Below are positions 1,913 through 60,201 of a stretch of DNA of 64,000 nucleotides, one piece after another. The stretch lies in NCBI GenBank assembly GCA_947491755.1, contig CANLKV010000005.1, forward strand, positions 27,103 through 91,102, given 5' to 3'. The DNA comes from an uncultured Nonlabens sp. GTDB lineage: Bacteria; Bacteroidota; Bacteroidia; Flavobacteriales; Flavobacteriaceae. The first letter of the stretch is position 1, and every line of letters starts with the position of its first letter. Made by a program: the position numbers and the translations under genes. The notes under the pieces are model-generated. The model had not been told where the DNA came from. It made no database searches and saw only the letters and a program-made list of their open reading frames with translations.

Positions 1913-3280
1913 TCACACAGTCATAGAAAATAGTCGTGTCTGTGGTTTTTTACGTTGCAACCTCAGGTCAAAGGGCAAACAAACGTTACGTACGTAGGGT
2001 TTACCAGCCTCAGTAACCGTTAAGCGGCCTTCCTCTAATTGTACCAGCCCATCTTGTTGCATTTCTTTCAGCTGGGTATGGATTGTATCTAGTGCCGGCA
2101 GGTATAGATCATCGGTCTCCCAGGATGTCTCAAACTGGCACATGATGTTTAAAATATGTTTTCTAACTATCAAATCTTCTTTATCTAATAAGTGCCCGCG
2201 TAGGAGTGGCAATTGATCTTCTTTGAGACACTCATAATATTCTTTAAGTGTTTTTACATTTTGCGCAAATCCATACCAGCTATCTCCTATGGCAGATACG
2301 CCCAGGCCTATCATGACATCTGTTTTTGAACTGCTATACCCCATAAAATTGCGATGTAATAGGCCGTTTTGCAAGGCTCGACACAGGTCATCTGTAGGTA
2401 AGGCAAAATGATCCATACCTATCTCTATATAACCTGCCTGCAGCAACATTTTTTTACCGGTTTCATATTGCAGCCGTTTTTGTTCTGGTGACGGTAGATG
2501 TTCCTCACTATACCCACGCTGCCCATTACCCTTGATCCACGGTACGTGTGCATAGCTATAGAACGCAATACGATCTGGCATAAGCCTTATGGTTTGTTCA
2601 ATCGTGTGAATTACGTGTTGATGCGTCTGGAAGGGTAGGCCGTAAATTATATCGTGTCCCACAGATGTAAAACCAAATTTTCTTGCCTGGATGGTTGCCT
2701 GCGCCACATTTTCAAAGGGTTGTACCCTATTGATTGCAATCTGGACGGTCTCGTTATAGTCCTGTACGCCATAACAAACTCTAGTAAATCCTTGATTGCT
2801 AAACATTTTTAAATGTGCCGGTGTCGTATTATTAGGATGGCCTTCAAAACTTAAGTCTGCGCTAGGGGTTTTAGGAACGATCCTAAATATCCCTGTAAGT
2901 AAATCATCTAGATTTTCAGCACTAAAAAATGTAGGTGTTCCACCGCCCAGATGCAATTGCTGGATTGCCAGACGATCGCCTATAAAATCTTTATATAATT
3001 GCAATTCTTTAAGCAGCGCTTTGATATAAGGACGCTCGACCAGATGATTTTTTGTGATCCGTTTAGTACAACCACAAAATGTACACATACTCTCACAAAA
3101 TGGGAGGTGAATGTACAAAGAGATAGCTGTGGTATGTTCGCTTTCGCGAAAGCGTAAACCCCTCAACAAACTATGCTTCCAACCGGCTGTGGTAAAAGAC
3201 GCCTCATCCCAGTATGGGACGGTAGGATAGCTGGTGTAACGAGGTCCAGGAACATTGTATTTACTAACCAATGCATCCAT
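1913..3280 (-). CDS. hemN: Oxygen-independent coproporphyrinogen III oxidase (radical SAM)
   Basis: KYNVPGPRYTSYPT, YIHLPFCESMCTFCGC (CxxxCxxC), HLGGGTPT, LHRNFMGY. Confidence 0.95.
   Translation of the reverse strand: MDALVSKYNVPGPRYTSYPTVPYWDEASFTTAGWKHSLLRGLRFRESEHTTAISLYIHLPFCESMCTFCGCTKRITKNHLVERPYIKALLKELQLYKDFIGDRLAIQQLHLGGGTPTFFSAENLDDLLTGIFRIVPKTPSADLSFEGHPNNTTPAHLKMFSNQGFTRVCYGVQDYNETVQIAINRVQPFENVAQATIQARKFGFTSVGHDIIYGLPFQTHQHVIHTIEQTIRLMPDRIAFYSYAHVPWIKGNGQRGYSEEHLPSPEQKRLQYETGKKMLLQAGYIEIGMDHFALPTDDLCRALQNGLLHRNFMGYSSSKTDVMIGLGVSAIGDSWYGFAQNVKTLKEYYECLKEDQLPLLRGHLLDKEDLIVRKHILNIMCQFETSWETDDLYLPALDTIHTQLKEMQQDGLVQLEEGRLTVTEAGKPYVRNVCLPFDLRLQRKKPQTRLFSMTV
3139..3154. repeat. 16-bp palindrome copy, perfect, inside hemN (RFRES)
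   Basis: CGCTTTCGCGAAAGCG. Confidence 0.95.
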
Positions 3281-3564
3281 TAAATGAAGAGACTTGCAAG
3301 TATAATGAGTGAATTCACGATGCTACTAGCGATAAGTAGATTGAGAATCATTTTAGGCTTTTGTACTGTCAATATTGCAGCGTTGTGAGTTGTACACAGG
3401 ATGACCGAAATCATTACAACTAGCATTTGCCACCAACCGTGGCCATAACTTAAGGTTTGCATTATTGCAAAACCGCCCAGGCAAGTAGAGACGATAATAC
3501 CTATCGCACTGTATCCCATGATGTTCTCTGTAAAGTCTTGTTCAAATTTTGCTAAGGTTGTCAT
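3280..3564 (-). CDS. Small 3-TM membrane protein co-transcribed with hemN
   Basis: Likely start MTTLAKFEQDF at 3564 (the ORF-track start lies in the promoter); stop overlaps the hemN start by 1 nt. Confidence 0.75.
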   Translation of the reverse strand: MTTLAKFEQDFTENIMGYSAIGIIVSTCLGGFAIMQTLSYGHGWWQMLVVMISVILCTTHNAAILTVQKPKMILNLLIASSIVNSLIILASLFI

Positions 3565-3588
3565 AACTTTAATTTTTAAATTATGAGA

Positions 3589-7688: not shown

Positions 7689-9017
7689 ATGAACATCAAA
7701 CAATTTGAATACAAACCATTAGCCCATTATTCCTACGCCATTGTTAGTGATGGCAAGATGGCAGTAATTGATCCAGAGCGCGATGCGTCTATATATTACG
7801 CTTTCGCGAAAGCGAACAAAGCACAAATCGTCGCGGTTATTCAAACACATCCACACGCAGATTTTGTAAGTTCTCACCTAGAGATCCATCACGAAACGGG
7901 AGCGACTATTTACAATAGTGAAAAATTAGGAGCAGACTACCCACATGCACCATTTGATGAAGGTGCAAGCATCAAAATGGGAGCAGTCACATTGAGAGCA
8001 ATCAACACGCCTGGACATAGTCCTGATAGTATTACCATCGTTGCACAGGAAGGCGACTCGACCGCACTATTTACAGGAGACACCTTGTTCATAGGCGATG
8101 TAGGGCGTCCTGATTTGAGGGAAACTGTGGGTAACATGACTGCAAAACGTGAAGAACTTGCAGAAATGATGTACCATACTATAAATAATAAATATAATGA
8201 TCTACCCGATGATGCTGTGGTTTATCCTGCTCATGGCGCTGGGTCATTGTGCGGTAAAAATTTGAGCGACGCAGCCAGCAGCACCCTGGGTGATGAGAGA
8301 CGCAATAACTGGGCGTTTACCACTACCCGTAAGGAAGACTTTATGAAAGAGCTACTGGATGGACAACCTTTCATTCCATCCTATTTTGTTTATGACGTTG
8401 ACCTCAATAAGCAAGGAGCACCTTCAATTAACCATACAAGAAATAAAATACCTTTTGAAAAAAAGGGAAGTCCATCAGGTTTGATCATAGATACCAGACC
8501 AGAGTCTGTTTTTAAAAAAGGGCATATTTCTGGTAGTTATAATATTCAAGCCGCCTATCCCACCTCCAAATTTGAGACGTGGCTAGGTGCTGTTGTACGT
8601 CCAGAAGAATCTTACACTCTAGTTATAGATCAAGAAGAAAACAAAGAATCTATTATTGATCGGGTATCAAAAATAGGATACGAGATAGCACTAGAGAAAA
8701 TAATCACTATTGCCGATCATTCTTTACAACAAACACCTATACTGGATCTAGCTCATTTTAAAGCTCATACAGATCAATATACTGTTGTGGATATACGCAA
8801 TCAAAGTGAAATAGACCAAGGTAAGTTTTTTGATAAGGCACTAGCACATCCATTGAACAACTTAAGAGACACAGCAAAAAATATCCCCACAGATCGACCC
8901 ATCGTGGTGCATTGTGCGGGTGGCTATCGTAGTGCTGCTGGCAGCAGTATTGTACAACAAATACATCCAGATGCACAGGTGTACGATTTGAGCGAGGCAG
9001 TAAAAGAATTCCAGTAA
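7689..9017 (+). CDS. MBL-fold hydrolase/persulfide dioxygenase fused to rhodanese domains (CstB-like)
   Basis: THPHADF, TPGHSP, FTGDTLFIGDVGRPDL, YPAHGAGSLCG; C-terminal rhodanese VHCAGGYRS; likely start MNIKQF. Confidence 0.88.
   Translation: MNIKQFEYKPLAHYSYAIVSDGKMAVIDPERDASIYYAFAKANKAQIVAVIQTHPHADFVSSHLEIHHETGATIYNSEKLGADYPHAPFDEGASIKMGAVTLRAINTPGHSPDSITIVAQEGDSTALFTGDTLFIGDVGRPDLRETVGNMTAKREELAEMMYHTINNKYNDLPDDAVVYPAHGAGSLCGKNLSDAASSTLGDERRNNWAFTTTRKEDFMKELLDGQPFIPSYFVYDVDLNKQGAPSINHTRNKIPFEKKGSPSGLIIDTRPESVFKKGHISGSYNIQAAYPTSKFETWLGAVVRPEESYTLVIDQEENKESIIDRVSKIGYEIALEKIITIADHSLQQTPILDLAHFKAHTDQYTVVDIRNQSEIDQGKFFDKALAHPLNNLRDTAKNIPTDRPIVVHCAGGYRSAAGSSIVQQIHPDAQVYDLSEAVKEFQ
7799..7814. 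repeat. 16-bp palindrome copy, perfect, inside the MBL gene (AFAKA)
   Basis: CGCTTTCGCGAAAGCG. Confidence 0.95.
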
Positions 9018-9064
9018 AAAAGACAACACCATCATACCAATTGATTTAAAAAACAAAATAAAAT

Positions 9065-9625
9065 ATGGAATACCTACTTAAAGAGCCATGGCCATGGTAC
9101 GCTGCAGGACCGCTTATTGCACTTACTTTAATGATATTATTATTATTGGGCAAGACCTTTGGCATGTCGTCTAATCTTAGGACAGCTTGTGCTGCAATGG
9201 GTGCCGGCAAGGCTTCTGACTTTTTTAAATTTGACTGGAAATCGCAACGCTGGAACTTACTTGTGGTACTGGGAGCGATAATCGGTGGCTGGATTGCTGC
9301 AACCTATATGAGTACTAGCACGGTCGCAATCAATCCACAAACTGCAGCACAGTTAGCTACAGATTATGGCATCACCAGCGCAGGGACCGCCTACCTACCT
9401 CCTGAAATTTTTGCATCTGTTAATTTAACAAGTCTTGAAAATTGGCTCATCTTAATAGGAGGTGGATTTCTGGTAGGTTTTGGCGCACGATACGCTGGTG
9501 GTTGCACCTCTGGTCATGCCATTACAGGATTGAGTAATCTACAACTGCCATCATTAGTTGCGGTCATCGGGTTTTTTATAGGTGGTTTAGTGATGATCAA
9601 CTGGATTTACCCACTAATTTTTTAA
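9065..9625 (+). CDS. YeeE/YedE family sulfur-compound transporter subunit
   Basis: PWPWYAAGPLI and GFGARYAGGCTSGHAI motifs. Confidence 0.9.
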   Translation: MEYLLKEPWPWYAAGPLIALTLMILLLLGKTFGMSSNLRTACAAMGAGKASDFFKFDWKSQRWNLLVVLGAIIGGWIAATYMSTSTVAINPQTAAQLATDYGITSAGTAYLPPEIFASVNLTSLENWLILIGGGFLVGFGARYAGGCTSGHAITGLSNLQLPSLVAVIGFFIGGLVMINWIYPLIF

Positions 9626-9627
9626 AC

Positions 9628-10041: not shown

Positions 10042-10045
10042 TCCA

Positions 10046-11503
10046 TCACGCCATTCTATTGATCATGGAGTGGGCAGATAAAATACGTAAGGCCTCCCAT
10101 TGTACTTTAGGATTATTACGATAGGAATAAATGACGTCTGCAGCATGTTTTCTCGTCACTGCAATATCCACAATAGGTCTGGGGTAATCGATGCCATAAT
10201 TAAAATCATGGTATTCGTTTAATTCTTGTTCCAGCAGCCACGGTTCCCTAGCAAACCGGGCAGACAATGGCCTCAACTCTGGAATGTATTGCTTTATAAA
10301 CAAGGCATCGGGATCATGATCCTGTGCCCCTTTTACTGGATTGTAAATGCGCAAGGTGTTTGTGCCAGTTAGTCCTGCTTGCATCTGGAATTGCCCGTAA
10401 TGAATACCAGGTTCCCAATCTAGAAAGCAGGCTGCCAGATAGGCACTGCCTGTGGTAAAATGTTGGAACAGATGGTGGCATAAAAATGAGACTACTAGCG
10501 CACGCATCCTGAAGTTGATATAACCCGTTTCTCGCACGGCGCGCATCGCAGCATCAACTAGCGGGTATCCCGTTTTTCCCTCTTTCCACGCTTTTACATA
10601 ATCGGCATTGTAGGGGTATTTGAGCGATTGATATCCACGATTGATTGCTTCAAACTCGATGCGTGGTTCCTGTTCAAATTTTTGAATAAAATGGCTTTGC
10701 CATCGCAACCTGCTGCTAAAGGCACTGAGTGATTTTTTATAAGGAGTTTTAACTCTCTCATTTTCAGTACGCTGAAACACTTGCCGAATGGATACATTTC
10801 CCCAGGCGATGTATGGGGACAAACGACTACAGCTCATACGCGACAGTAAGGGTTTTGAAATATGGGCTGCATAAAACCTGGAGCGTTGTAAAAAAAATGA
10901 GTCCAACCATTGATGGGCCTGGCGTTCCCCACCTTGTTGAAATCTTTGTGAGCTAACTGTTAAATCAAGCGGTGTAAAGAGGTTTAAAAAGGAGTCCGCT
11001 TTCGCGAAAGCGAAATTACCCAAAGCTACATTACACAAGGGCTTGCACATATACTCATACCAATCTTGAGACCAGGTACTACGATTTTTTGCCCCACGAA
11101 CGACTCCATTGTTTTGAAATTCCTGCCAGATGACCTTATGGGTTTTACACCATTTTTTTACCTGCTTATCACGCGTGTAGGTGTGATCCAGTCCAGACTC
11201 TTCTGTGCTATGGATGCGCCCTATACCGTGGTGTCTATGTAGTTTTTCAAAAAAGGGAATCGCATCTTCTGTGACGGCCATGACCTGTGCGTTGTATCGC
11301 GCTAGGCTTGCATTCATATCTTCTAGCGACTGCTTTACAAAATTTAAATGCCGCTGTGAATAATGAGCATTACGCCATATGCTAGGTTCGTGCAAATAAA
11401 CCAATAAGACAGGATTATCTAAGGTTTGAAAGGCTTGTAATCCTTCTAGATCTGACAGTCGCAAATCTCTTTTGAACCAGTAAATATGAAGACCTGCCCC
11501 CAT
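10046..11503 (-). CDS. Cryptochrome/photolyase family protein
   Basis: YWFKRDLRLSD, SRLSPYIAWG, TGYPLVDAAMR, LRIYNPVK; -7 element TAAATTTG at 11524-11531. Confidence 0.88.
   Translation of the reverse strand: MGAGLHIYWFKRDLRLSDLEGLQAFQTLDNPVLLVYLHEPSIWRNAHYSQRHLNFVKQSLEDMNASLARYNAQVMAVTEDAIPFFEKLHRHHGIGRIHSTEESGLDHTYTRDKQVKKWCKTHKVIWQEFQNNGVVRGAKNRSTWSQDWYEYMCKPLCNVALGNFAFAKADSFLNLFTPLDLTVSSQRFQQGGERQAHQWLDSFFLQRSRFYAAHISKPLLSRMSCSRLSPYIAWGNVSIRQVFQRTENERVKTPYKKSLSAFSSRLRWQSHFIQKFEQEPRIEFEAINRGYQSLKYPYNADYVKAWKEGKTGYPLVDAAMRAVRETGYINFRMRALVVSFLCHHLFQHFTTGSAYLAACFLDWEPGIHYGQFQMQAGLTGTNTLRIYNPVKGAQDHDPDALFIKQYIPELRPLSARFAREPWLLEQELNEYHDFNYGIDYPRPIVDIAVTRKHAADVIYSYRNNPKVQWEALRILSAHSMINRMA
10997..11012. 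repeat. 16-bp palindrome copy, perfect, inside the photolyase-family gene (AFAKA)
   Basis: CGCTTTCGCGAAAGCG. Confidence 0.95.
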
Positions 11504-12237: not shown

Positions 12238-12243
12238 AACTTA

Positions 12244-14103: not shown

Positions 14104-14104
14104 T

Positions 14105-16254: not shown

Positions 16255-16270
16255 CGCTTTCGCGAAAGCG
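16255..16270. repeat. 16-bp palindrome copy, perfect, intergenic; extends to a 24-bp palindrome at 16251-16274
   Basis: AGTTCGCTTTCGCGAAAGCGAACT in the divergent BLUF2/NaR intergenic region. Confidence 0.95.
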
Positions 16271-18835: not shown

Positions 18836-20236
18836 ATGGATTTCTTAAAACAAGTGTATGCGGTGGTAGATGTCGAGACCACAGGAAAAGGTCTGGGCGG
18901 TAATCGCATTACAGAAATTTGCATCGTACGTATGCGCCAGGATAAGGTATTAGATAAATTTACAAGCCTGGTCAATCCACAACAGCCAATACCCGCCTTT
19001 ATCACTCAGCTTACTGGCATCGATGATCACATGGTCGCAGATGCACCTGTTTTTGAAGAGGTCGCACAGCAGGTTTTGGCTTACTTGAAGGATGCCATTT
19101 TTGTAGCTCATAATGTGGGGTTTGACTATAATGTCATACGCAATGAGTTTAAAAGACTGGATATAGATTATAACAGCAAAAAGCTGTGTACGGTTCGGCT
19201 TTCGCGTAAGCTATTACCCAATAAATCATCCTATAGCCTGGGACGACTGTGCTATTCTTTAAGCATACCGCTAGACAACCGCCACCGTGCAGAAGGGGAT
19301 ACTGATGCGACGGTTATTTTATTTAATCGTTTGTTGGCGCTAGATGATGACTATGAGGTGATCATAGATTTTCTAAAAGTAAAAAGTAAAGAAAGTACCC
19401 TGCCACCCCATGTGCCTAAGGAACAGTTTGATGAATTACCCAGTTCACCTGGAATTTATCTCTTTAAAAACAAGGCGCACCAGGTAATCTATGTAGGAAA
19501 AGCGATAAATATTAAAAAAAGAGTGCTTTCTCATTTCTACACAAAAAAAAGTAAGTCCTATCTCATGGGACAAGAAATGTTCTATATCGATTATGAAGAA
19601 ACGGGTAACGAGGCCGTCGCACTGCTGCGAGAGGCCGATTTAATACGCCACTATTACCCTAAATTTAATAGCGCACAGAAAAAGCCACGCAACACGTATC
19701 AAATTATTTCTTATAAGAACCAGCGTGGCGTTATACAACTGGCAGTTCAAGTATCAAAATCTTTTGATTACTCTGTAATTACATTCTATAACCGGTCGCA
19801 AGCAGTAGAGAAGTTAGAATGGATGTGTGAAGAATTTAATCTGTGCCCGCGGTATTGTTCTTTACAATTGACCACTGGTCGCTGCACTCATTACAAATTG
19901 CGCAATTGTGAGGGAATATGCGCTCATGAAGAAGATGTTGAAGACTATAACCAGAAGGTATTGAGCGCTATTGATGCCTTACAAAACGATAAACCCACTT
20001 TTATTATTAAAGAATCTGGACGCACGCCAGATGAGAATTGCGTCGTACTTATCAAAGAGGGGCGCTATCAAGGGTACGGTTATGTAGATCGTGAGATACC
20101 GGTCACCACTATTGATCAATGTGAAACCTACATAGAGCGGCGCACACCTAATTATCACACGCATCAAATCATCAATACCTACTTGCGTAAAAACGAGATG
20201 CGCAATGTGGTGGTGCTCGATCAATTAAGTGCCTAG
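18836..20236 (+). CDS. DEDDh 3'-5' exonuclease (DnaQ-like) fused to a GIY-YIG (UvrC-like) domain
   Basis: VDVETTG, FVAHNVGFDY, HRAEGD; PGIYLF...VIYVGKAINIKKRV. Confidence 0.9.
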   Translation: MDFLKQVYAVVDVETTGKGLGGNRITEICIVRMRQDKVLDKFTSLVNPQQPIPAFITQLTGIDDHMVADAPVFEEVAQQVLAYLKDAIFVAHNVGFDYNVIRNEFKRLDIDYNSKKLCTVRLSRKLLPNKSSYSLGRLCYSLSIPLDNRHRAEGDTDATVILFNRLLALDDDYEVIIDFLKVKSKESTLPPHVPKEQFDELPSSPGIYLFKNKAHQVIYVGKAINIKKRVLSHFYTKKSKSYLMGQEMFYIDYEETGNEAVALLREADLIRHYYPKFNSAQKKPRNTYQIISYKNQRGVIQLAVQVSKSFDYSVITFYNRSQAVEKLEWMCEEFNLCPRYCSLQLTTGRCTHYKLRNCEGICAHEEDVEDYNQKVLSAIDALQNDKPTFIIKESGRTPDENCVVLIKEGRYQGYGYVDREIPVTTIDQCETYIERRTPNYHTHQIINTYLRKNEMRNVVVLDQLSA

Positions 20237-21550: not shown

Positions 21551-21566
21551 CGCTTTCGCGTAAGCG
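21551..21566. repeat. 16-bp palindrome copy, 1 mismatch, upstream of the likely start at 21525
   Basis: CGCTTTCGCGTAAGCG. Confidence 0.9.
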
Positions 21567-24489: not shown

Positions 24490-24505
24490 CGCTTCCGCGA
24501 AAGCG
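24490..24505. repeat. 16-bp palindrome copy, 1 mismatch, intergenic
   Basis: CGCTTCCGCGAAAGCG. Confidence 0.9.
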
Positions 24506-27923: not shown

Positions 27924-28769
27924 ATGGCTGATATACAGCACTTAAAAGATTTAGTCACACAAGTACGTCGCGACATCGTACGTCAGGTTCACGCAGTAAG
28001 TAGCGGCCATCCCGGTGGTTCCCTAGGGTGTGCAGAGTTTATTGTAGCTCTCTATCATGAGATCATGGATCATAATCCTGATTTTAATATGGATGGTCAC
28101 AATGAAGATTTATTTTTTCTTTCAAATGGGCACATTTCGCCTGTTTTTTACAGCGTTTTAGCACATGCGGGTTATTTCCCTAAAGAGGAGTTATCTACCT
28201 TCCGCAAGCTCAATTCTAGACTGCAAGGTCACCCTACCACGCATGAAGGTCTTCCTGGAGTGCGTATAGCAAGTGGATCCCTAGGACAAGGTATGAGTGT
28301 AGGAATAGGTGCCGCCCTTTCAAAGAAATTAAATGGCGATGATAAAACAGTTTTTACCTTACACGGCGATGGCGAGCTGCAAGAAGGTCAAATATGGGAG
28401 TCTGCCATGTATGCCAGTGCAAATCATGTAGACAACCTTATAGCAACCATTGACGTCAATGGTCAACAAATTGATGGTAGCACTGACAGCGTTCTTGCGC
28501 TAGGTGATTTGCGCAAGAAGTTTGAAGCCTTTGGCTGGGAAGTATTGACCATAAACAAGGGGAACGATATGGAAGCTGTGGTGTCAGGAGTGAAAGAGGC
28601 GATCTCGCTTACGCGAAAGCGTAAACCCGTCTGCATATTGCTACACACAACCATGGGCCACGGTGTGGACTTTATGATGGGCTCTCACGAGTGGCATGGT
28701 ATTGCTCCTAACGATGAGCAACTAGCAGAAGCATTGAAACAAAATCCTGAAACCATAGGCGACTATTAA
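27924..28769 (+). CDS. Transketolase, N-terminal subunit
   Basis: SGHPGGSLG, LQGHP, GSLGQG, GDGELQEGQIWE (TPP motif). Confidence 0.93.
   Translation: MADIQHLKDLVTQVRRDIVRQVHAVSSGHPGGSLGCAEFIVALYHEIMDHNPDFNMDGHNEDLFFLSNGHISPVFYSVLAHAGYFPKEELSTFRKLNSRLQGHPTTHEGLPGVRIASGSLGQGMSVGIGAALSKKLNGDDKTVFTLHGDGELQEGQIWESAMYASANHVDNLIATIDVNGQQIDGSTDSVLALGDLRKKFEAFGWEVLTINKGNDMEAVVSGVKEAISLTRKRKPVCILLHTTMGHGVDFMMGSHEWHGIAPNDEQLAEALKQNPETIGDY
28606..28621. repeat. 16-bp palindrome copy, 1 mismatch, inside transketolase-N (SLTRKR)
   Basis: CGCTTACGCGAAAGCG. Confidence 0.9.
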
Positions 28770-31260: not shown

Positions 31261-31276
31261 CGCTTCCGCGGAAGCA
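31261..31276. repeat. 16-bp palindrome copy with compensatory 6/11 changes, probably intergenic
   Basis: CGCTTCCGCGGAAGCA. Confidence 0.75.
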
Positions 31277-35133: not shown

Positions 35134-36773
35134 ATAACTTTATTGATAAACGGCCGTACCTCTCCATCTTTATAATGTGGTTATTCATATATATACCTCA
35201 TTTACAGGTACTCTACCCTAATATTATGGAGGCACGCAATTTTGTGACTGCTAGAGAGATGCTTACAGATGGTAACTGGGTATTGACCACCATGAATGGA
35301 TTACCACGCTATCAAAAACCCCCATTACCCACCTGGTTCAGCGCTGCAACTGGTGAACTATTTGGCATAGAAAACTTGTTTGCCCTGCGACTACCTGCCG
35401 CATTGATCACTCTGGTATTGCTGTTTGTGATGTATTCGCTTTCGCGAAAGCTAACTCAAAACACACTCCATGCATTTCTATCTACTGCCGTAGCCGCAAC
35501 ATCCTTCTACATCATTTTTGCTGGACGCAACGGTACCTGGGATATTTTTGCTCATAGCTTTATGCTAGTCGGTATTTATTTCTTGTACCAATTATTTAAA
35601 CAGGACAAGAAGGTGTATTCTAATGCATTGTGGGCGGGAGTTTTTATAGGCTTATCCTTTATGAGTAAAGGTCCCGTATCGCATTATGCACTTTTACTGC
35701 CATTTTTAATAGCTTATGGTGTGGTATACAAATTTTCAAGCTGGAAGATAAAAATATGGCCCTTATTGCTAACGATAACCGTTGCTGTGCTCTTATCGTC
35801 ATGGTGGGCTGTTTACATATATTACCAAGATACTGCAGAGGCTACTCGCATCGCTCAAGTCGAGTCCGGCAGGTGGGTAGGCTATGAGCTTAAGCCCTTT
35901 TATTACTACTGGAGCTTTTTTACACAGTCTGGATTATGGACTATACCTGCCTTTATCGCCTTGCTCTACCCCTATTTAAAATCAAGAGTTTCAAATTTAA
36001 AGGCCTATCAATTTGTATGGTTGTGGACGATACTAGCAGTAATTCTGCTGTCCCTTATTCCTACTAAAAAGTCCCGATATTTATTACCCGTGTTGATTCC
36101 CCTGGCATTTACAACAGCCTTTTACATAGAATATTTATTTAAAAACTTTAAACAAATCACTAACAGGTGGGAACTGTGGCCCGTGTATTTAAATTACGGT
36201 CTAATTAGCCTTATCGGGATCATGTTTCCATTAGGTGCTTATTTGTTTATAGGAGACTCGCTGGATATTTTAAATATCAATTATTTGCTCACCGCTGCGG
36301 GCCTGCTTGCCGCAGGCATCTCGATAGGTTATTATCTGATCTTAAAAAAGATAAAGCCTGTGGTATATGCAAGCCTCTTTTTTATTTTAATAGTCATTAC
36401 ACTAGGGTTTCCTTTATCTAATGCCCTACTAGTAAACCCAGATTATAAATCTATCGCCCTGGTAAAAGATCAATCCATTCCCATTTATGCGATTGACGAT
36501 CTAGCCCCAGAACTTATATGGGATCTAGGTGAACGCACCACTTTTAAAACAATCGATCAACTAAAAGAATATAGGGGGAATGAAATGCTGGGTGTACTCA
36601 CTTATTACTCTACTAATAAAGAAGCATTGCGCGAACTAAAAGATGTGTATCACATACAAGATGTCATTACCTATGACCTTAATCCCGTGGACCGCACACG
36701 TCGTTCTTATAAAGATCGATTGAAGGCAGATTTATACATCTTAAAACGTAAATCAACGGAAGCCAATAAATAA
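35130..36773 (+). CDS. ArnT-like (GT-C) glycosyltransferase
   Basis: MEARNFVTAREM, RYQKPPLPTW, MSKGPV, KKSRYLLP; many TM. Confidence 0.88.
   Translation: MNNFIDKRPYLSIFIMWLFIYIPHLQVLYPNIMEARNFVTAREMLTDGNWVLTTMNGLPRYQKPPLPTWFSAATGELFGIENLFALRLPAALITLVLLFVMYSLSRKLTQNTLHAFLSTAVAATSFYIIFAGRNGTWDIFAHSFMLVGIYFLYQLFKQDKKVYSNALWAGVFIGLSFMSKGPVSHYALLLPFLIAYGVVYKFSSWKIKIWPLLLTITVAVLLSSWWAVYIYYQDTAEATRIAQVESGRWVGYELKPFYYYWSFFTQSGLWTIPAFIALLYPYLKSRVSNLKAYQFVWLWTILAVILLSLIPTKKSRYLLPVLIPLAFTTAFYIEYLFKNFKQITNRWELWPVYLNYGLISLIGIMFPLGAYLFIGDSLDILNINYLLTAAGLLAAGISIGYYLILKKIKPVVYASLFFILIVITLGFPLSNALLVNPDYKSIALVKDQSIPIYAIDDLAPELIWDLGERTTFKTIDQLKEYRGNEMLGVLTYYSTNKEALRELKDVYHIQDVITYDLNPVDRTRRSYKDRLKADLYILKRKSTEANK
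35437..35452. repeat. 16-bp palindrome copy, 1 mismatch, inside the ArnT-like gene (SLSRK)
   Basis: CGCTTTCGCGAAAGCT. Confidence 0.9.
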
Positions 36774-45385: not shown

Positions 45386-47899
<2,514 letters not shown>

Positions 47900-47924
<25 letters not shown>

Positions 47925-49045
47925 CTATTGTAGGCATGGGTTGCGCTGGCAGTCATGTATTGCTGCAGTTACTGGATAACCCGTCCACGCGGGATATAAA
48001 GATCTTGGTGCTGGACGATTTTCAAGCAGATAGTCAGGAAAAAACTTGGAGCTACTGGGAGAAAGGAAATGGCAAGTGGGATCATTTAACATCACATATC
48101 TGGCCGCATGGCGCGTTTTATACCAATCGAGTCTCCATAGAATTTGATTTGCACCCTTATCAATATAAAACGATAGAAAGTCGTGATTTTATCGCTTTCG
48201 CGAAAGCGAAATTACAACAACATCCCAATTGCACTTATGTCAATGCCCGTGTTGAAGCGCATGTGGCAGGCACACCCGTTGTTCTCAAAACTAAAGAAAT
48301 GGAATACCAGGCAGATCTAGTTCTAGACAGCCGGGTACCCACTGCGTTTTATCAGGACGATCAGGCCACCACCCTGAAGCAACACTTTTTAGGTTGGAAA
48401 ATTAAAACAGCTGTAGCTTCATTTGACCCATCATCATTTGTAATGATGGATTATCGGATACAGGATCAAGGTACAACTAGCTTTATCTATATCTTACCCA
48501 CTAGTGAACGGGAAGCGCTGGTAGAATTTACTTACTTCTCGCCAGAAATTGTGAGTAACAAACGTTATGAGGATTTTATAAGGGAGTATCTATCGACACA
48601 TACAAATATCAAGGATTTTGAGATTATAGGACAAGAGCAAGGCATTGTACCCATGTCCACATACAGATTTGACCAGCATCATGAGGGCAATCTTTATAAA
48701 ATTGGTACAGCAGGTGGATGGGTAAAAGCCAGTACTGGATACAGTTTTAAAATGAGTGAAAAACGTGCAAAAATACTGGTAGCAAACTATGTGGCAAATC
48801 GCGATCTTGATAGTGGTATGCAAAAGAAGAGATTCCAGCTATATGACGAAATCATGTTGGATGTGCTGTCAGATCATAATGATCGCGGGCATTTGCTTTT
48901 TGAAAACTTGTACAAAAACAATCCTATCACACGTATTTTATCATTTTTAGATGAGGAAACAAGTTTTTCTCAGGAACTTAAAATCATGTTCCCATTAACA
49001 TCAATGCCCTTTATTAAAGGTTTTTTCCGCAGGATCTTGCAATAA
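47900..49045 (+). CDS. crtY: Lycopene beta-cyclase
   Basis: Likely start MDHHKYDIAIVGMGCAG; KTWSYWE, FIYILP, EQGIVPM, IGTAGG..KASTGY. Confidence 0.88.
48193..48208. repeat. 16-bp palindrome copy, perfect, inside crtY (AFAKA)
   Basis: CGCTTTCGCGAAAGCG. Confidence 0.95.
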
Positions 49046-54157: not shown

Positions 54158-54173
54158 CGCTTTCGCGAAAGCG
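54158..54173. repeat. 16-bp palindrome copy, perfect, intergenic (20-bp with TT/AA flanks)
   Basis: TTCGCTTTCGCGAAAGCGAA. Confidence 0.95.
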
Positions 54174-55340: not shown

Positions 55341-56819
55341 TTATTTAGTCCACTCTTGTAAAAGCTCACAATCCTTAAAGTCTTCACCTATTTTAATGTA
55401 GGTATCTTTAATTTTTTCATCACGCCATTCTGCAATGCGCCTTACTTGTTTATCGCGCAGTGCTAGATCTTTTATCTTACCATAGTCTGAGGCATAATTT
55501 GCCTCGTGATCTCCTACTTTCCTGATTAAATTTACAATGGTAAATGATGTTGCGCCTGTCCCACGCGGGTCCTTTTCTTCTATAATTCCGCTTACATCAC
55601 CTTCTTGCAAAAATTGTACAGAAGAGACAATGCTGGATGATATAAATCGCGGAGCAATTTTTGAAAGGTCTAGCAAGTTTTCACCTGTGATAGGATTTAC
55701 AAACAACCCACCTTTTTCTGCAGTTTCTTTTTCATCACTTATGGCTCTTGCGGCATCTGCAAATGTGGTGTCACCTTGAACGATTTTGTCTCTCATAGCG
55801 TCTAGCTTTGCACGAGCTTTCGCCTCTTGAGCACGGCTTATGTAAGGGTATTGCAATATGTGTCGCACATCACGCACTTGACCACGCACTTTTTCTACAT
55901 AAAGTATATGCCAACCAAATGCGGTTTCAAATGGTTTGCTTATTTCACCCTCGTTTAATGAGAAGGCTTGTTCTTTAAATTCTTTAGCATATGGATCGGA
56001 TCGTCGCATGGATAACACTCCACCTGATCTCTCTGTTCCTATATCTTCAGAAAAAAGAGTTGCTTTTGCGGCAAAGTCGGCACCATTGTACAGTACATCA
56101 TCGCGGTATTCATTTAACTTATCAATAGTTTGCTGCACTGACTCCTCACTGGGCTTTGATTTGACCACGATACGCGCTATTTCAACTTCAGAGTTGATAA
56201 GAGGGCGTTGATCTTCTGGTATTTTTGAGAAAAACTGACGTACTTCTTCTGGTGTGATTTGAATGTCTTGTGTAAGACGTTCTTGCATGCGAGAGGCTAG
56301 CAATTCATCGCGATTAATGACATTCAACTCGTCCCGCAATTGTTGGATATTATCCTTACGGTAGAAACGTGCAAGGTCTTCATCGCTTGCGCCATTTAGT
56401 TCGTTTTTCAAGAATTCAATACGTTGCGTAGTGGCATTCTCAATCTCTGCATCACTTACGGTTATACTGTCCTGTATGGCGTGGTGGGCATAAAGTTTTG
56501 AGCCTAGTAAAGACTCCATGATATCACATTTTGTAAGGTCATTTAATTGTCCCCTGCGCTTTAATTCATTGAGTTGAGCACTAATATCAGAATCCAAAAC
56601 GACATAATCGCCTATCACTCCTGATACACCATCTATTTTATACCGCATTGCTTTAGGCTTAACGGTATCTTTAAGTGCGGCAAGCACCTCGTTTTTAATG
56701 GCCTCGTCCTGGGTTGTAGTTGCAGTTTGTGCGATCATCGCTTCCGCGAAAGCGAACATTACTAAAACACTGAGCCAACTACGGATAGATTTTGAGTTTA
56801 TTGCTTTCAATTGCATCAT
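55341..56819 (-). CDS. SurA-like chaperone/parvulin PPIase
   Basis: KIDGVSGVIG..VLDSD SurA N-domain; two rotamase domains (FSEDIG..., ETAFGWHI, ISDEKET). Confidence 0.85.
   Translation of the reverse strand: MMQLKAINSKSIRSWLSVLVMFAFAEAMIAQTATTTQDEAIKNEVLAALKDTVKPKAMRYKIDGVSGVIGDYVVLDSDISAQLNELKRRGQLNDLTKCDIMESLLGSKLYAHHAIQDSITVSDAEIENATTQRIEFLKNELNGASDEDLARFYRKDNIQQLRDELNVINRDELLASRMQERLTQDIQITPEEVRQFFSKIPEDQRPLINSEVEIARIVVKSKPSEESVQQTIDKLNEYRDDVLYNGADFAAKATLFSEDIGTERSGGVLSMRRSDPYAKEFKEQAFSLNEGEISKPFETAFGWHILYVEKVRGQVRDVRHILQYPYISRAQEAKARAKLDAMRDKIVQGDTTFADAARAISDEKETAEKGGLFVNPITGENLLDLSKIAPRFISSSIVSSVQFLQEGDVSGIIEEKDPRGTGATSFTIVNLIRKVGDHEANYASDYGKIKDLALRDKQVRRIAEWRDEKIKDTYIKIGEDFKDCELLQEWTK
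56739..56754. repeat. 16-bp palindrome copy, 1 mismatch, in the SurA signal peptide (AFAEA)
   Basis: CGCTTCCGCGAAAGCG. Confidence 0.9.
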
Positions 56820-57645: not shown

Positions 57646-59605
57646 TTTCTTTTTTTAATCGATTCAAGACTTTTTCATTTATTGAAATAGTACGTCCCTC
57701 TCGTAAACCATCCAGCCATTGTTTTTCTAAAACTTGCTGGTAATCGTTAATCACGGCACCACGAGCCTCCTCAAATTCTTTGATAGCTGGTGGTAATATT
57801 TGTTTTACACGTATAACTTTATAAAAACCATTTCCTTCTTTTTCAAATACTCTAGACACTCCTAGCGCAACTTCAAATTCCTGCGGCAATCTGGAGTAGG
57901 TATCTTCTACCACACCGCTAGATACCATGACCTTTGTATCTCCTTTATCATTAATGGCTGTCTTTATTTGTTCTATCGTAGCATCCTCTTTTAACATGGT
58001 AACGACTTCCTCTGCTGCTTGTGCCGTGGTGATTTGAAATAAATCTAAATCTAGACGGCGCTTCCATTTGTACTGCTCCTTATTAATGTCATAATATTTT
58101 TTTTGACCCAGGCTGTCTTTTTTGGCGGCTTCCCATACTTTTTGTTCCATTAATTCAAAGAGAAGCAAGCCTTCTTTATATTCTTGATATAGAAATGCAA
58201 AATCTTCATTATCTCTTTCTAGGTGCTCGTCGTAATAATCTATGATCGTTTTGCCTACAAACTCTTTATAGTATTGATTTAGTTTTTCCTCAAGACCACT
58301 ATACTGCCGCGCATCCTTTAACTGTTTCTGCCCAGCAAATTCATAGAAGTCCATTGTAGTTACAGGACGATTTTCAATAGCAAATAATTCATTCTTATTA
58401 AAGTCTGCTGCCTCCATCTTCCATGTACCAGTTAGTAAAGAATCATTCACTGCGTTAAAACGCTGGGTAAAGGATCTTATAACTGGTAATTGGACTTCAT
58501 ATGTGCTTAAAAGTTTATTTGTAAAAGCCTCTGTAATTTTTCTAGAACGTTCTGATTTCTTTATCTGCTCTCTTAGTCCTTTTTCTGCCTCTTCAAAAGT
58601 CGGTATTGGAAATTTCTCTAATAGCTGTATAATGTGGTAGCCAAAATTTGTTTTAATTGGTTTTGAAAAACTTCCTATCTCAGTAAGTTCAAATGCTGCT
58701 TGCTCAAATTCTGGAGAGTTCAAACCACCTGTACCAAAACGTGGCAGTTTACCGCCATTACTTGCGCTATTTATATCCTCAGAAAACTCTCGCGCCATCT
58801 GATCAAATTCTTTTCCTTCTTGCAGTTGCTCATAAATCTGATAAATACGCTCCCTAGCATCCATGGTGCTATCTGGACGTTTATCATAGGTCATAATATG
58901 TGCCACTACTACATCTTGCGGTGTTTTACGTGTAGCGTTTACTTTAAGAATATGGTAACCAAAATCAGTCCTGAAAATATCTGACACTTGTCCCACTGGG
59001 GTAGCATATGCTGCAGTCTCAAAATCAAAAACCATTTTAAAAGGCCCGAACCAGCCCAGAGCACCGTTAGTTGCAGCACTGGGTCCCTCACTCTCATTAC
59101 GAGCTATTGATTCAAAATCTGCACCCGCATCAATACGTTTTTTTATAGCTTCTATCTTGCGGTAAGCGGCTAGTGTATCTACAGGTGTGGCAGCGCGATC
59201 CACTTTAATGAGAATATGACTCGCATTAACCTCATTATTCATTCGATAATATGCCTCTTTTACTAAGGCGTCTGTAACTTCATTATCTGTTAAATAAGCT
59301 TTTGATAAACTCTCGCGGTAGGATTGCAATTCGTTTCTGTACCCCTCATTATTTTGCAATCCTAATTCAATTGCTTGTAATAATTTAAGACGGTAATCAA
59401 TGTATAATTGCAAGTAGTTGTCTAGATCTTTCTGGGATTCGTCCTGGACGATGTCTAGATTTTTAGAATAAACCTTTATAAAAGTACCTGCATCGTAATC
59501 ATTCCCGTCAATGGTGAGCAGCGTCTCCTGTTTTAAGTCTTGCGCTACACATACATGCATTTGACAAAAAAGTAGAAGACTTAAAAACTTAATAAATCGA
59601 TTCAT
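57623..59605 (-). CDS. Multi-domain parvulin-type peptidylprolyl isomerase
   Basis: VNASHILIK, GALGWFG..MVFDFETAAY, TDFGYHIL, second rotamase domain SEDINSASNGGKL. Confidence 0.88.
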   Translation of the reverse strand: MNRFIKFLSLLLFCQMHVCVAQDLKQETLLTIDGNDYDAGTFIKVYSKNLDIVQDESQKDLDNYLQLYIDYRLKLLQAIELGLQNNEGYRNELQSYRESLSKAYLTDNEVTDALVKEAYYRMNNEVNASHILIKVDRAATPVDTLAAYRKIEAIKKRIDAGADFESIARNESEGPSAATNGALGWFGPFKMVFDFETAAYATPVGQVSDIFRTDFGYHILKVNATRKTPQDVVVAHIMTYDKRPDSTMDARERIYQIYEQLQEGKEFDQMAREFSEDINSASNGGKLPRFGTGGLNSPEFEQAAFELTEIGSFSKPIKTNFGYHIIQLLEKFPIPTFEEAEKGLREQIKKSERSRKITEAFTNKLLSTYEVQLPVIRSFTQRFNAVNDSLLTGTWKMEAADFNKNELFAIENRPVTTMDFYEFAGQKQLKDARQYSGLEEKLNQYYKEFVGKTIIDYYDEHLERDNEDFAFLYQEYKEGLLLFELMEQKVWEAAKKDSLGQKKYYDINKEQYKWKRRLDLDLFQITTAQAAEEVVTMLKEDATIEQIKTAINDKGDTKVMVSSGVVEDTYSRLPQEFEVALGVSRVFEKEGNGFYKVIRVKQILPPAIKEFEEARGAVINDYQQVLEKQWLDGLREGRTISINEKVLNRLKKEIEQKKRA

Positions 59606-59727
59606 AGGCTATATTTAACCGCAATGCCCAAAAATAGACAAAAGCAATAGGGGAACAAAACGCTACAACTTTGCAATTAGTATGAAAATGTTGTCAATTA
59701 AGCGACCTATTTACGAACTTACTTTAT

Positions 59728-60201
59728 ATGACAAATCAGCACAAGATCACGATCAATCAGCCTATTAAAAGAGTCATGGAATTATTTGATAATCCAGAGA
59801 ATTTTAAGCACTGGCAACAAGGTCTTATTTCTACACAGAATATTACCTCTAGCGTGGGTAAAGTGGGTAGTAAACGTCGCATGAAAATCAAAACCAGTGT
59901 TGCCGTGATCACTATGGTTGAAGAAATCACGGCTAGGGACTTACCACATTTATGGGAAGCCACTTATCGCACAAAGGGAGTAGTGAATTACCAGAAAAAT
60001 CGCTTCCGCGAAAGCGAAATAAATAAAGAAGGCACCATACAAAAACAGACGATATGGGAGGCGACTACTGTATTTAAATTCACAGGGATGATGCGGCTGG
60101 TAGCTCGAGCTAGACCTCAAGTTTTTGAATCGCAGACATTGCAATTCATGAAAGATTTTAAAAGATTTGCAGAGGAAGGTATCTCTGTGGCTGAATCATA
60201 A
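59728..60201 (+). CDS. SRPBCC/START-like family protein
   Basis: ITINQPIKRVMELFDNPENFKHWQ; C-terminal amphipathic helix FKRFAE. Confidence 0.8.
   Translation: MTNQHKITINQPIKRVMELFDNPENFKHWQQGLISTQNITSSVGKVGSKRRMKIKTSVAVITMVEEITARDLPHLWEATYRTKGVVNYQKNRFRESEINKEGTIQKQTIWEATTVFKFTGMMRLVARARPQVFESQTLQFMKDFKRFAEEGISVAES
60001..60016. repeat. 16-bp palindrome copy, 1 mismatch, inside the SRPBCC gene (RFRES)
   Basis: CGCTTCCGCGAAAGCG. Confidence 0.9.

Follow-up and report, generated by a model that had tools for sequence, protein, structure and literature searches.

The 64,000-nucleotide stretch of Nonlabens DNA analyzed here, referred to as the window, raises the question of how a 16-base palindrome, CGCTTTCGCGAAAGCG, came to be written into unrelated peptides, and what keeps it there. 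In Nonlabens it recurs about once per 3.7 kb, mostly within genes.

Copies of the palindrome in genes and spacers

The 14-base form of the motif, GCTTTCGCGAAAGC, has 17 copies in the window: ten are exact, six carry one mismatch, and one is a variant with two symmetric mismatches (GCTTCCGCGGAAGC, at 31262); 100 shuffles gave no copy at zero or one mismatch. The 16-mer is the real consensus, its outer bases (-1 C, +1 G) being shared by ~87-92% of copies, and is present in the window as nine exact and six one-mismatch copies, approximately none being expected for each class. Eleven copies are intragenic and six intergenic (Table 1), the copies at 21552 and 31262 being assigned to the second group because, although within long open reading frames, they lie upstream of likely true starts. 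Open reading frames of 100 aa or more account for 90.4% of the window, which puts the enrichment of copies in intergenic DNA at about 3-fold.

The intragenic copies use all three frames, as an earlier note on this DNA had claimed. That note listed ten in-gene copies, read as AFAKA/AFAEA (MBL-rhodanese 7800, photolyase 10998, TonB receptor 40234, crtY 48194, SurA-like 56740), as RFRES (HemN 3140, crtD-like 46562, SRPBCC 60002) or as SLSRK/SLTRK (ArnT-like 35438, transketolase 28607). All ten were correctly described, and the tally fell one short, missing the exonuclease copy at 19198 (RLSRKL).

Table 1. The 17 copies of the palindrome in the window, with their gene context and reading
Position	Match	Context	Reading or remark
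3139..3154	exact 16-mer	HemN-like radical-SAM gene 1913-3280, minus	RFRES
7799..7814	exact 16-mer	MBL-rhodanese gene, plus	AFAKA
10997..11012	exact 16-mer	photolyase gene 10046-11503, minus, inter-domain linker	AFAKA
16255..16270	exact 16-mer	intergenic, divergent BLUF / rhodopsin genes	extends to 22-bp perfect palindrome GTTCGCTTTCGCGAAAGCGAAC
19197..19212	one mismatch in 14-mer, GCTTTCGCGTAAGC	RNase T/GIY-YIG exonuclease gene, plus	RLSRKL
21551..21566	one mismatch	5' of likely start of minus-strand gene 20233-21597; effectively intergenic, adjoins dnaB	signal peptide MQVKTF... at the likely start
24490..24505	one mismatch, GCTTCCGCGAAAGC	intergenic, accA / EamA	
28606..28621	one mismatch, GCTTACGCGAAAGC	transketolase N-terminal subunit gene, plus	SLTRKRKP
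31261..31276	two mismatches, GCTTCCGCGGAAGC, still a perfect palindrome	upstream of pyrR/PRTase-like gene	likely start ATG 31319
35437..35452	exact 14-mer	ArnT-like PMT_2 glycosyltransferase gene, plus	SLSRKL after transmembrane helix
40233..40248	exact 16-mer	TonB-dependent receptor gene, plus	AFAKAN
46561..46576	exact 16-mer	crtD-like desaturase gene, plus	RFRESV
48193..48208	exact 16-mer	lycopene cyclase crtY, plus	AFAKAK
54158..54173	exact 16-mer	intergenic, aconitase / MoxR	
56739..56754	one mismatch	SurA-like PPIase gene 55341-56819, minus	AFAEA, signal-peptide end
60001..60016	one mismatch	SRPBCC/polyketide-cyclase-like gene, plus	RFRES
62609..62624	exact 16-mer	intergenic, between convergent genes ending 62594 and 62657	

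Origin by substitution in place

The proposal that the motif arose by substitution rather than insertion is borne out by alignment with motif-free homologues at nine of the eleven gene sites: all nine are ungapped or align residue by residue, with no 5-8 aa insertion and no target duplication. RFRESV of the crtD-like protein stands opposite KFNEKV or KFGEAV, and AFAKAE of crtY opposite TEAKAQ or NYAKSE, in both cases ungapped. There is likewise no gap in the MBL-rhodanese protein against PDB 3tp9 and 3r2u, in the photolyase against 2e0i, or in the exonuclease, where LSRK aligns with LAKS or LARY (8zef, 2p1j, 9qpc), and among 27 representatives of the ArnT-like protein SLSRK aligns ungapped with SLAIR, TLSRK or LLSRK. 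In HemN, RFRES falls on FKES or FNES of motif-free relatives, within a variable linker that has a 2-aa indel upstream; in the TonB receptor AFAKAN aligns to TFKKSE or TFSKVN, and loop length differs downstream.

The transketolase gives the most detailed view. Its homologues are all 281 aa long, and xTGKGKP of the outgroup becomes LSRKRKP without a gap; the GKGKP that the note gave for homologues is correct, TGKGKP being seen in outgroups. Other Nonlabens species have LTRKGKP and LSGKEKP, with stepwise states visible in the codons, and the site has 0, 1, 6, 6, 8, 9 and 9 mismatches across species. The alignments show that the copies formed in situ through base substitution, codons included.

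Several copies had been thought to occupy constrained positions. This stands for the GKGKP loop of the transketolase, the one motif site with clear conservation beyond the genus, but not for most others, which are pre-adapted or variable, HemN among them. LSRK-like loops are present in ArnT-like and exonuclease homologues, and signal peptides usually end in A-x-A, a pattern that AFA of the SurA-like protein fits.

Conservation within Nonlabens and taxonomic range

That selection on DNA shapes these sites had also been suggested, and DNA-level constraint is found: across nine species, third-codon identity in the crtD-like gene is 0.455 gene-wide and 0.91 within the motif, whose 14-nt window ranks 3rd of 888 for conservation. 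This copy has zero or one mismatch in all eight other Nonlabens loci aligned at the site and is missing in L207, which reads HLGEKV. The crtY copy is exact in L001-L006 and L207 and has one mismatch in L007, with proteins just 44-57% identical. In the closest relative, L201 has site-matched copies that are exact in HemN and the photolyase and one mismatch away in MBL-rhodanese, and L207 retains the ArnT-like copy and that of the TonB receptor, the latter being present in the flavobacterium L206 too. Of seven sites shared with the closest relative, five are exact and one differs at a single base; at its nucleotide identity of 70-74%, an unchanged 14-mer would be expected ~1% of the time. Copies occupy the same codons even between species with nearly saturated synonymous sites. 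These comparisons show that the motif, once formed, is maintained over long time and in near-perfect form, under a constraint acting on DNA rather than protein, whether through natural selection or molecular drive.

The spectrum of mismatches is abrupt. In 260 kb of Nonlabens DNA the 16-mer is found 40, 22, 1, 5 and 4 times at zero to four mismatches; the corresponding counts in 1.46 Mb from other genera are 0, 0, 0, 3 and 35. A lost copy also tends to be offset by another close by. The intergenic copy between accA and EamA has an exact orthologous copy at L204:6557, and L205 has a copy within EamA instead. A copy at L204:3498 (N. ulvanivorans) and another at L205:3552 each lie at or close to the start of a gene that gene order, though no blastn alignment, suggests is the one at 20233-21597.

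The motif is present in all seven Nonlabens loci of the genome scan (L001-L007 all cover one region, which makes their counts interdependent), as in every Nonlabens locus examined. The 73 loci (1.46 Mb) taken from other genera of the Flavobacteriaceae have no copy. At least 120 metagenomic loci contain the 20-mer; they total 827 kb and carry 239 copies, and their density and gap figures are biased because the loci were chosen by motif and truncated. Two cultured Nonlabens phages have no copies, and contigs of similar GC with phage structural genes have them at host-like density, consistent with copies building up slowly in DNA that resides in the chromosome.

Spacing, arms and candidate functions

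The copies are maintained ~2-6 kb apart. Their spacing in the window has a CV of 0.37 against ~0.95 for random placement (P ~2e-5), no gap is under 1632 bp, and the even spacing recurs in other loci. Each core is flanked by two 30-nt arms, the 5' side of each strand being G/T-rich and C-poor, so that core and arms form a dyad-symmetric unit of ~74 bp. In the window 5'-arm C plus 3'-arm G amounts to 64 against 134.5 expected (z = -6.4). This skew ends at -30; 231 independent metagenomic copies show it again, and chance motif copies in unrelated viral contigs lack it. It is statistical rather than universal, the transketolase copy being no more skewed than its motif-free orthologues.

We infer, with a probability of roughly 0.45, that a dimeric protein working in DNA uptake or recombination recognizes the motif as a double-stranded site. 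A homodimeric sequence-specific protein would read the core as double-stranded DNA, and the process it serves would handle chromosomal DNA as segments several kb long, most likely preferential uptake and/or recombination of conspecific DNA in natural transformation. Such a bias would propagate the motif and keep it in place, with the proteins having to tolerate it. The arms could be the extended footprint of the protein or, more speculatively, tracts favoring the loading of recombination proteins. The motif resembles both the DNA uptake sequences of Haemophilus and Neisseria and the cyanobacterial HIP1 (highly iterated palindrome 1, GCGATCGC), to which it seems a new counterpart; elements of this kind are already known, and the motif, host phylum and architecture appear new to the literature. 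Natural competence with a preference for its own DNA has been described in one member of the Flavobacteriaceae, Riemerella columbina (PMC7965970).

The USS of Pasteurellaceae and DUS of Neisseriaceae lie largely in open reading frames, where they occupy residues of low conservation and build up through point mutation (PMC2817400, PMC1939737); their share within open reading frames is 65%, 49% and 34.5% in three species (PMC2817400, PMC1939737, PMC3458573). The likeness, seen here at the level of DNA sequence, extends to hundreds to thousands of copies, poorly conserved residues, point mutation instead of insertion, intergenic enrichment and even spacing, and weaker preferences in the flanks are known for USS too (PMC2817400, PMC1939737, PMC3458573). 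Counter to an uptake function, USS and DUS are non-palindromic, being asymmetric 9-12-mers, whereas the Nonlabens motif is a perfect palindrome; their flanks have A/T tracts rather than a G/T-rich skew. The mismatch spectrum in Nonlabens is also far sharper than the graded one of USS and DUS (PMC1939737), which is better matched by strong site-specific selection, or by a copy-and-replace process, than by weak drive.

HIP1 shares with the Nonlabens motif a palindromic, taxon-specific and hugely over-represented sequence, found mostly in genes and in all frames, with conservation at orthologous positions beyond coding need, inside open reading frames, and a non-random chromosomal distribution (PMC5861425). 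Its function, long obscure, has lately been tied to natural transformation, the efficiency of which it increases (bioRxiv 10.1101/2024.09.10.611283). The Nonlabens motif differs in belonging to Bacteroidota and essentially to one genus in the sample examined, in its 30-nt arms, in being ~3-10 times sparser, in a regular spacing of ~3-4 kb as opposed to periodicity at 10-90 kb, and in its 16 bp against 8 bp, which gives it about double the information.

It is somewhat unlikely, in our estimation, that the motif is instead the site of a Nonlabens-specific nucleoid or chromosome-organizing protein comparable to Noc, SlmA, ParB or a loop anchor, in which case natural selection would preserve a site every few kb without any role for transformation. 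The regular spacing and 74-bp symmetric footprint suit such a protein equally well, and the all-or-none mismatch spectrum, the offsetting of loss by nearby gain and the palindrome of the core, typical of sites bound by protein dimers, also favor it; HIP1 periodicity has likewise been read as chromosome organization (PMC5861425). The motif resembles parS (ParB), NBS (Noc) and SBS (SlmA) as a perfect palindrome of 14-16 bp with TTTC...GAAA half-sites, although the gap between these is 2 nt in Nonlabens and 4 nt in parS and NBS. NBS sites are also found within genes. Numbers weigh against this function: one copy per 3.7 kb in a genome of ~3 Mb gives several hundred or more sites, whereas the known palindromic chromosome sites (parS, NBS, SBS, matS) number from a few to tens per genome, the copy number here being one to two orders of magnitude above that of parS, NBS and SBS. 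Copies are spread evenly through the window, unlike clustered sites, and no candidate protein has been identified; the cultured phages are neutral evidence.

An improbable alternative is a templated short-patch process (gene conversion, oligonucleotide-like repair or homing) that would overwrite ~16 bp or more in one step. It would account for the near absence of copies with 2-4 mismatches beside 62 with zero or one and for the range of transketolase states, and ungapped alignments fit it as well as they fit point mutation. However, the protein intermediates of the transketolase exist, flanking codons remain homologous to outgroups, and the arms of different copies are alike in composition only, with no sequence similarity beyond it. 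No enzyme of this kind was seen here, and we know of none for templated short-patch motif writing.

A link to methylation, in which CGCG or TCGCGA at the center is the target of a resident methyltransferase and modification favors the palindrome, for example through self-marking or methyl-directed processing, seems quite improbable. Its precedent is HIP1, which two methyltransferases recognize and whose effect on transformation is methylation-dependent (PMC4390886; bioRxiv 10.1101/2024.09.10.611283); none is known for the Nonlabens motif. In the Nonlabens phage P12024S both CGCG (9 occurrences where 43 were expected) and GGCC (0 where 32 were) are avoided, which suggests that the host restricts those sites. 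In the host outside the motif, however, TCGCGA is neither avoided nor favored (6 against 6.5 expected) and CGCG is mildly low, and a target of 4-6 bp leaves the 16 conserved bases and the arms unexplained.

A role for RNA or peptide, as an mRNA hairpin, terminator, processing site or favored peptide, is very improbable. The core can fold as a 5-bp hairpin and one intergenic copy sits between convergent genes, but the hairpin is weak (-1.9 kcal/mol), folding with real flanks is no better than with random flanks, and at the copies there is neither a following T-run nor an Rfam match. Three frames yield unrelated peptides, and six copies are intergenic. Six-frame translation of the window finds every AFAKA and RFRES encoded by the motif itself and, two LxRKR excepted, no motif peptide written by other codons.

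Rickettsia palindromic elements (RPE), like the Nonlabens motif, are palindromic repeats in intact protein-coding genes; they are insertions of ~100-150 bp that add a peptide segment. Miniature mobile elements of this sort (RPE, MITE, REP) inserted in frame are extremely improbable in Nonlabens: the copies are palindromic, repeated and dispersed, and the flanks at first sight suggested longer inverted arms, but insertion is contradicted by the absence of added length at every tested site, the two arms of a copy complement each other no better than arms taken from different copies and bring no extra folding energy, transposition would not give even spacing, and intergenic spacers have the same length with a copy as without (135 and 143 nt).

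The palindromic core and its flanking arms

The 14-mer GCTTTCGCGAAAGC is present in the 64-kb window as 10 exact and six one-mismatch copies, against no match at zero or one mismatch in 100 dinucleotide-preserving shuffles. A seventeenth copy, at 31262-31275, reads GCTTCCGCGGAAGC; here positions 5 and 10 of the 14-mer are both changed, and the sequence is still a perfect palindrome. This symmetric pair (6 and 11 in the 16-mer) forms the soft positions of the motif, the commonest single variant being T to C at position 5, found at 24491, 56740 and 60002. In about 90% of copies the 14-mer is preceded by C and followed by G, so that the 16-mer CGCTTTCGCGAAAGCG, which the earlier note had already given, is the true core. 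With 17 copies against none in the shuffles, this perfect palindrome is over-represented by more than the 15-fold or so that defines HIP-type elements.

The motif contains no stop codon in any frame, and 11 copies are intragenic and six intergenic. Open reading frames make up 90.4% of the window, and the intergenic enrichment is about three-fold (P ~0.01 by our own Poisson approximation). Pfam matches and the ORF map recover all ten genes and peptides named in the earlier note, and add an in-gene copy that it had missed, in an RNase T/GIY-YIG exonuclease. The copies at 21552 and 31262 are reassigned outside genes, as they lie upstream of probable true start codons.

On either strand, the 30 nucleotides 5' of the core are poor in C and rich in G and T. 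Across the window, C in the 5' arms plus G in the 3' arms amount to 64 against 134.5 expected (z = -6.4), while G in the 5' arms plus C in the 3' arms amount to 207 against 134 (z = +6.7), with a T/A z of +1.6. Deamination of C to T is rejected as the source of the skew, in which mostly G takes the place of C and T/A is nearly unmoved. Within -11 to -20 the GC skew is near +0.5, within -21 to -30 it is about +0.2 to +0.3, and further out it falls to zero. The pattern recurs in 231 unique metagenomic copies, including copies outside the query selection, and is missing at chance 14-mer occurrences in unrelated viral contigs. Core and arms together form a symmetric unit of about 74 bp, in which TGTGG, GTTGG and TGTTG are enriched about four-fold in the 5' arms.

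Complementarity between the arms is no higher within copies than between them, and the arms contribute no extra folding energy (MFE -13.7 with real flanks vs -12.9 with random flanks), so the arms are a compositional footprint and not a stem. The same measurements dispose of a MITE or longer hairpin, which the resemblance of the flanks to degenerate inverted repeats had brought into consideration. An intrinsic terminator, with its G+C-rich hairpin and T run, is likewise rejected: most copies are intragenic, their 3' flank is GAA or A/C-rich, and the single copy to match in a terminator scan, 60002, does so on the non-coding strand. Rfam, the terminator scan and folding gave no RNA or hairpin signature for the motif, and no Rfam family, terminator or promoter role was found for the copies in the window.

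Origin by substitution and maintenance of the motif

The earlier note had proposed that the in-gene copies arose by substitution in place rather than by insertion, and had named orthologue alignment as the test, which proves decisive. Alignments with homologues, covering nine gene sites (all in-gene copies but the SurA-like and SRPBCC ones), bear this out at all nine. At none of the nine does the alignment show an insertion of 5-8 aa or a duplicated target, and in-frame insertion of the RPE, MITE or REP type is ruled out by the lack of an indel relative to orthologues. Motif copies therefore originate in place, with length unchanged. In transketolase, all 25 inspected homologues, from Nonlabens and other genera, align ungapped; 23 are 281 aa long, and P0176 and P0211 reach 283 aa through an N-terminal difference. 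Elsewhere in Nonlabens the same site also reads LTRKGKP, LSGKEKP or STGKGQP, and codon comparison identifies the changes as base substitutions. For an intergenic spacer, the length is 143 nt with a copy and 135 nt in the counterpart without one.

Gene sites aligned with homologues (position is the start of the 14-mer in the window)
Gene	Position	Peptide at motif	Peptide in homologues	Alignment
HemN	3140	RFRES	FKES, FNES	2-aa indel immediately upstream, in a family-wide length-variable linker
MBL-rhodanese	7800	AFAKAN	LLTAKRE (3tp9)	no gap at motif
Photolyase	10998	FAFAKADS	GSFDVTDS (2e0i)	no gap at motif
Exonuclease	19198	LSRK	LAKS, LARY	no gap at motif
Transketolase	28607	SLSRKRKP	xTGKGKPV (motif-free)	no gap at motif
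ArnT-like	35438	SLSRK	SLAIR, TLSRK, LLSRK	no gap at motif
TonB receptor	40234	AFAKAN	TFKKSE, TFSKVN	loop length varies immediately downstream
crtD-like	46562	RFRESV	KFNEKV, KFGEAV, HFSEKV (motif-free)	no gap at motif
crtY	48194	AFAKAE	TEAKAQ, NYAKSE (motif-free)	no gap at motif

The suggestion that several copies occupy constrained protein positions stands in part. In the transketolase loop a conserved peptide has clearly been overridden, and the GKGKP that the earlier note gave for homologues is indeed what the outgroups carry (xTGKGKPV). Most sites, on the other hand, are either pre-adapted, with the patterns x-x-A-K-A, F-x-E-S or L-S/A-R-K, or lie in variable segments. USS and DUS have likewise been reported at pre-adapted or variable sites (PMC2817400).

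The motif is maintained at the DNA level, a constraint that the earlier note had ascribed to selection on DNA. Among nine Nonlabens species, third-codon identity in the crtD-like gene is 45.5% gene-wide and 91% inside the motif, whose 14-nt window ranks 3 of 888 for conservation. The crtY copy is exact in six loci of the genus (L001-L006) and in L207, and has one mismatch in L007, despite proteins merely 44-57% identical to that of the window. The closest relative, a metagenome-assembled genome represented by loci L201 and L207, shares 70-74% nucleotide identity with the window; of seven sites in common, five are exact copies and a sixth carries one mismatch, against an expected survival of about 1% for an unconstrained 14-mer. 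Selection at the peptide level is rejected, since AFAKA and RFRES are encoded in the window always by motif codons and never by others.

At the crtD-like site the motif is present in nine other aligned Nonlabens loci and missing in L207. There the crtD-like gene (13470-14933) reads CAT TTG GGA GAA AAA GTA, or HLGEKV, at the place of the window's motif site (46561-46576), a peptide similar to that of motif-free outgroups, as though the protein had relaxed back after the DNA copy was no longer kept. A skew in the arms that follows acquisition of the motif is supported at the crtD-like 3' arm, where Nonlabens has 2.2 G and 6.4 C per 24 nt against 5.0 and 2.8 in outgroups, and is unsupported at crtY and transketolase, where the 3' arm of Nonlabens is no different from that of outgroups. 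Because the skew tracks the motif at the first site but not at the other two, the arms are in part pre-existing context.

Taxonomic range, phage contigs and spacing

When one genome per species was scanned with CrtI of the window as query, the closest matches were seven Nonlabens loci (80-82% amino acid identity), followed by 73 loci from other Flavobacteriaceae genera. The Nonlabens loci each have 2-5 exact copies, although these counts are not independent of one another, as all seven loci cover a single orthologous region; the other 73 loci (1.46 Mb) have no copy with fewer than two mismatches. Matches to the 16-mer at 0, 1, 2, 3 and 4 mismatches number 40, 22, 1, 5 and 4 in 260 kb of Nonlabens DNA and 0, 0, 0, 3 and 35 in the 1.46 Mb of other genera, so that the density at 0-1 mismatch is about 238 per Mb against zero. 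The Nonlabens spectrum is bimodal, with few half-formed copies, and the distribution of the motif is genus-wide. The window's transketolase subunit shares 90% identity with its N. marinus and N. agnitus counterparts.

A metagenome scan with the 20-mer TTCGCTTTCGCGAAAGCGAA gave at least 120 loci that together hold 239 copies in 827 kb, although density and gap figures from these loci are biased, as they were chosen by the motif and are incomplete in extent. Organism names are those of the sequence records. Two motif-bearing records fall, by their labels, outside Nonlabens. One genome labelled Leeuwenhoekiella sp. A16 (CP172313, locus L202) has two exact copies in 21 kb. Its HemN-cbb3 oxidase cluster (8415-21377) adjoins a phage-type integrase and has an exact copy at the HemN codon used in the window; an ATPase gene of the same locus holds a two-mismatch remnant, GTTTTCGCGAAAGT, which lies, judged by position, roughly where the syntenic ATPase gene of L201 has an exact copy. 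The cluster may be a transferred island, or the range of the motif may exceed Nonlabens. The second, a flavobacterial contig (L206), carries the TonB receptor copy as the only one in its 17.7 kb.

Hits in the viral collection are mostly single chance matches. Fifteen viral_contigs loci with 36-47% GC carry 2-3 copies each, some 3-6 kb apart; L171, with portal, capsid and connector genes, has them at 191, 6705 and 11185, and L134, with a depolymerase and an S49 protease, at 4210, 7851 and 10955. The 5' arms on contigs with phage genes are weakly C-poor (0.12 vs 0.20 in the background). These contigs are probably prophages of Nonlabens-like hosts, and the 14-mer could thus be used to identify such hosts. 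Neither of the two Nonlabens phages in culture, P12024S and P12024L (each 35.7 kb), contains a copy even at two mismatches. P12024S strongly avoids GGCC (0 vs 32 expected) and CGCG (9 vs 43), and CGCG is similarly low in P12024L (10), which suggests that their host restricts GGCC and CGCG sites; CGCG is also the centre of the palindrome.

The spacing of the motif is regular, with compensating turnover. The 16 gaps between the 17 copies in the window average 3717 bp (SD 1371, CV 0.37, smallest 1632 bp); the CV expected for random placement is about 0.95, and equal regularity was reached in 2 of 100,000 simulations (P ~2e-5). Gaps in ten other Nonlabens loci range from 1.2 to 7.9 kb, and in the motif-selected metagenome loci 62 of 119 fall within 2-4 kb. 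A copy inside transketolase is found in the window and L006 only, and four other Nonlabens loci (L003, L004, L005 and L205) have one instead about 165-180 bp upstream of the transketolase start. The intergenic accA/EamA copy of the window and of N. ulvanivorans (L204) is replaced in L205 by a copy within EamA, and the closest relative, without the crtD copy, has one in the MerR/crtI spacer that is missing from the window. A conserved copy is common to seven other Nonlabens loci (L001, L003-L007 and L204), and in L204 it is located inside a TPMT methyltransferase gene that is apparently missing from the window.

Relation to known signals and possible function

The element behaves like HIP1 and like USS/DUS yet belongs to neither family, as it differs in sequence, length, symmetry (from USS/DUS), phylum, arms and mismatch spectrum. 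DNA carrying USS or DUS is preferentially taken up by competent cells. With these the Nonlabens motif shares taxon specificity, construction within genes by point substitution and a spacing evener than random; however, the over-representation of USS/DUS falls gradually with mismatches, whereas the Nonlabens spectrum is not graded. With HIP1 it shares a perfect palindrome conserved at orthologous ORF positions beyond coding need, although HIP1 proper, GCGATCGC, is cyanobacterial and differs in sequence and length. HIP-type palindromes are associated with a methyltransferase, often an orphan, whose recognition sequence lies within the palindrome, and the one hint of such an enzyme here is the avoidance of CGCG by a Nonlabens phage. 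A search of the accessible literature found neither the 14-mer nor any iterated palindrome described for Nonlabens or Bacteroidetes.

We favour the reading that the motif is an uptake or recombination signal, with a probability of about 45%, a figure that includes its general statement. Three known systems have such population genetics, USS, DUS and HIP1, and each has been linked, firmly or provisionally, with natural transformation and recombination (PMC2817400, PMC1939737, bioRxiv 10.1101/2024.09.10.611283). Riemerella columbina, of the same family, is competent and prefers its own DNA (PMC7965970). Besides this precedent and the self-preferring competence within the family, the preference rests on the palindrome and its spacing. 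A perfect palindrome with symmetric flanks would be recognised in duplex DNA by a homodimeric protein, and a spacing of one site in every few kb, at which a further site close by brings no benefit, suggests a process that would handle DNA in segments of a few kb.

A bolder form, which we regard as doubtful, would make the 74-bp unit the first sequence-specific uptake and recombination signal known in Bacteroidota, combining uptake-sequence and Chi-like roles. The 16-bp palindromic core would be recognised irrespective of strand by a dimeric receptor, and on the entering strand the G/T-rich 5' arm would promote RecA or DprA loading. Some 25 codons' worth of composition would then be imposed on hundreds of proteins. 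Chi is read by RecBCD or AddAB, which it switches to RecA loading, and is 5-8 nt long, asymmetric and oriented with replication; the Nonlabens motif is 14-16 bp and, being a perfect palindrome, has no orientation. As a Chi-like feature the TGTGG, GTTGG and TGTTG words of the 5' arms are only suggestive.

The binding site of a chromosome-organising protein ranks next to the uptake or recombination signal and is, in our view, rather unlikely. The parS/NBS sites number few to tens per genome and have the form TTTC-N4-GAAA, whereas in the Nonlabens motif, which occurs once per 3.7 kb, 2 nt separate TTTC from GAAA. What both of these readings explain poorly is above all the sharp mismatch spectrum, and it leaves room for a templated process that replaces sequence in place, which we consider improbable. 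RPE, MITE and REP elements show presence or absence as an indel, with copy-specific inverted arms or a stable hairpin, and the motif has neither; mobile-element, RNA and peptide explanations can in effect be discarded.

Marine Flavobacteriia play a major part in degrading algal organic matter and, to our knowledge, little is known of their DNA exchange. A genus-wide, selectively maintained 16-bp signal makes sequence-specific uptake, recombination or nucleoid organisation directly accessible to experiment in this class, and a third independent, much longer case beside USS/DUS and HIP1 allows shared function to be tested. It is also a DNA-level signal that overrides a conserved protein loop (GKGKP to SRKRKP in transketolase) and skews the codons around it over about 60 nt. 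A practical use of the 14-mer is as a marker of Nonlabens-type DNA in metagenomes, prophages and transferred islands, and the motif could be tried as a means of raising transformation efficiency when genetic tools are built for these bacteria.

Other features of the window concern its gene content. Between a pyrR-like/tRNA region and the MerR-crt cluster, a block at about 32700-42000 encodes a GT2 glycosyltransferase, the ArnT-like protein, PepSY_TM, the TonB receptor and XusB, and holds two evenly spaced motif copies. The block is also present in the closest relative (L207); in other species of the genus transketolase and the crt cluster are no more than about 7-9 kb apart, and those loci yielded no ArnT-like or TonB-receptor homologue. 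Two adjacent tRNA genes on the plus strand (32430-32502 and 32553-32634) are the sole Rfam matches in the window. Light-related genes cluster at 10046-17305 (photolyase, BLUF sensor and rhodopsin) and at 42034-49045, where a MerR/B12-binding regulator accompanies the carotenoid genes crtI, crtB, a hydroxylase, the crtD-like gene and crtY.
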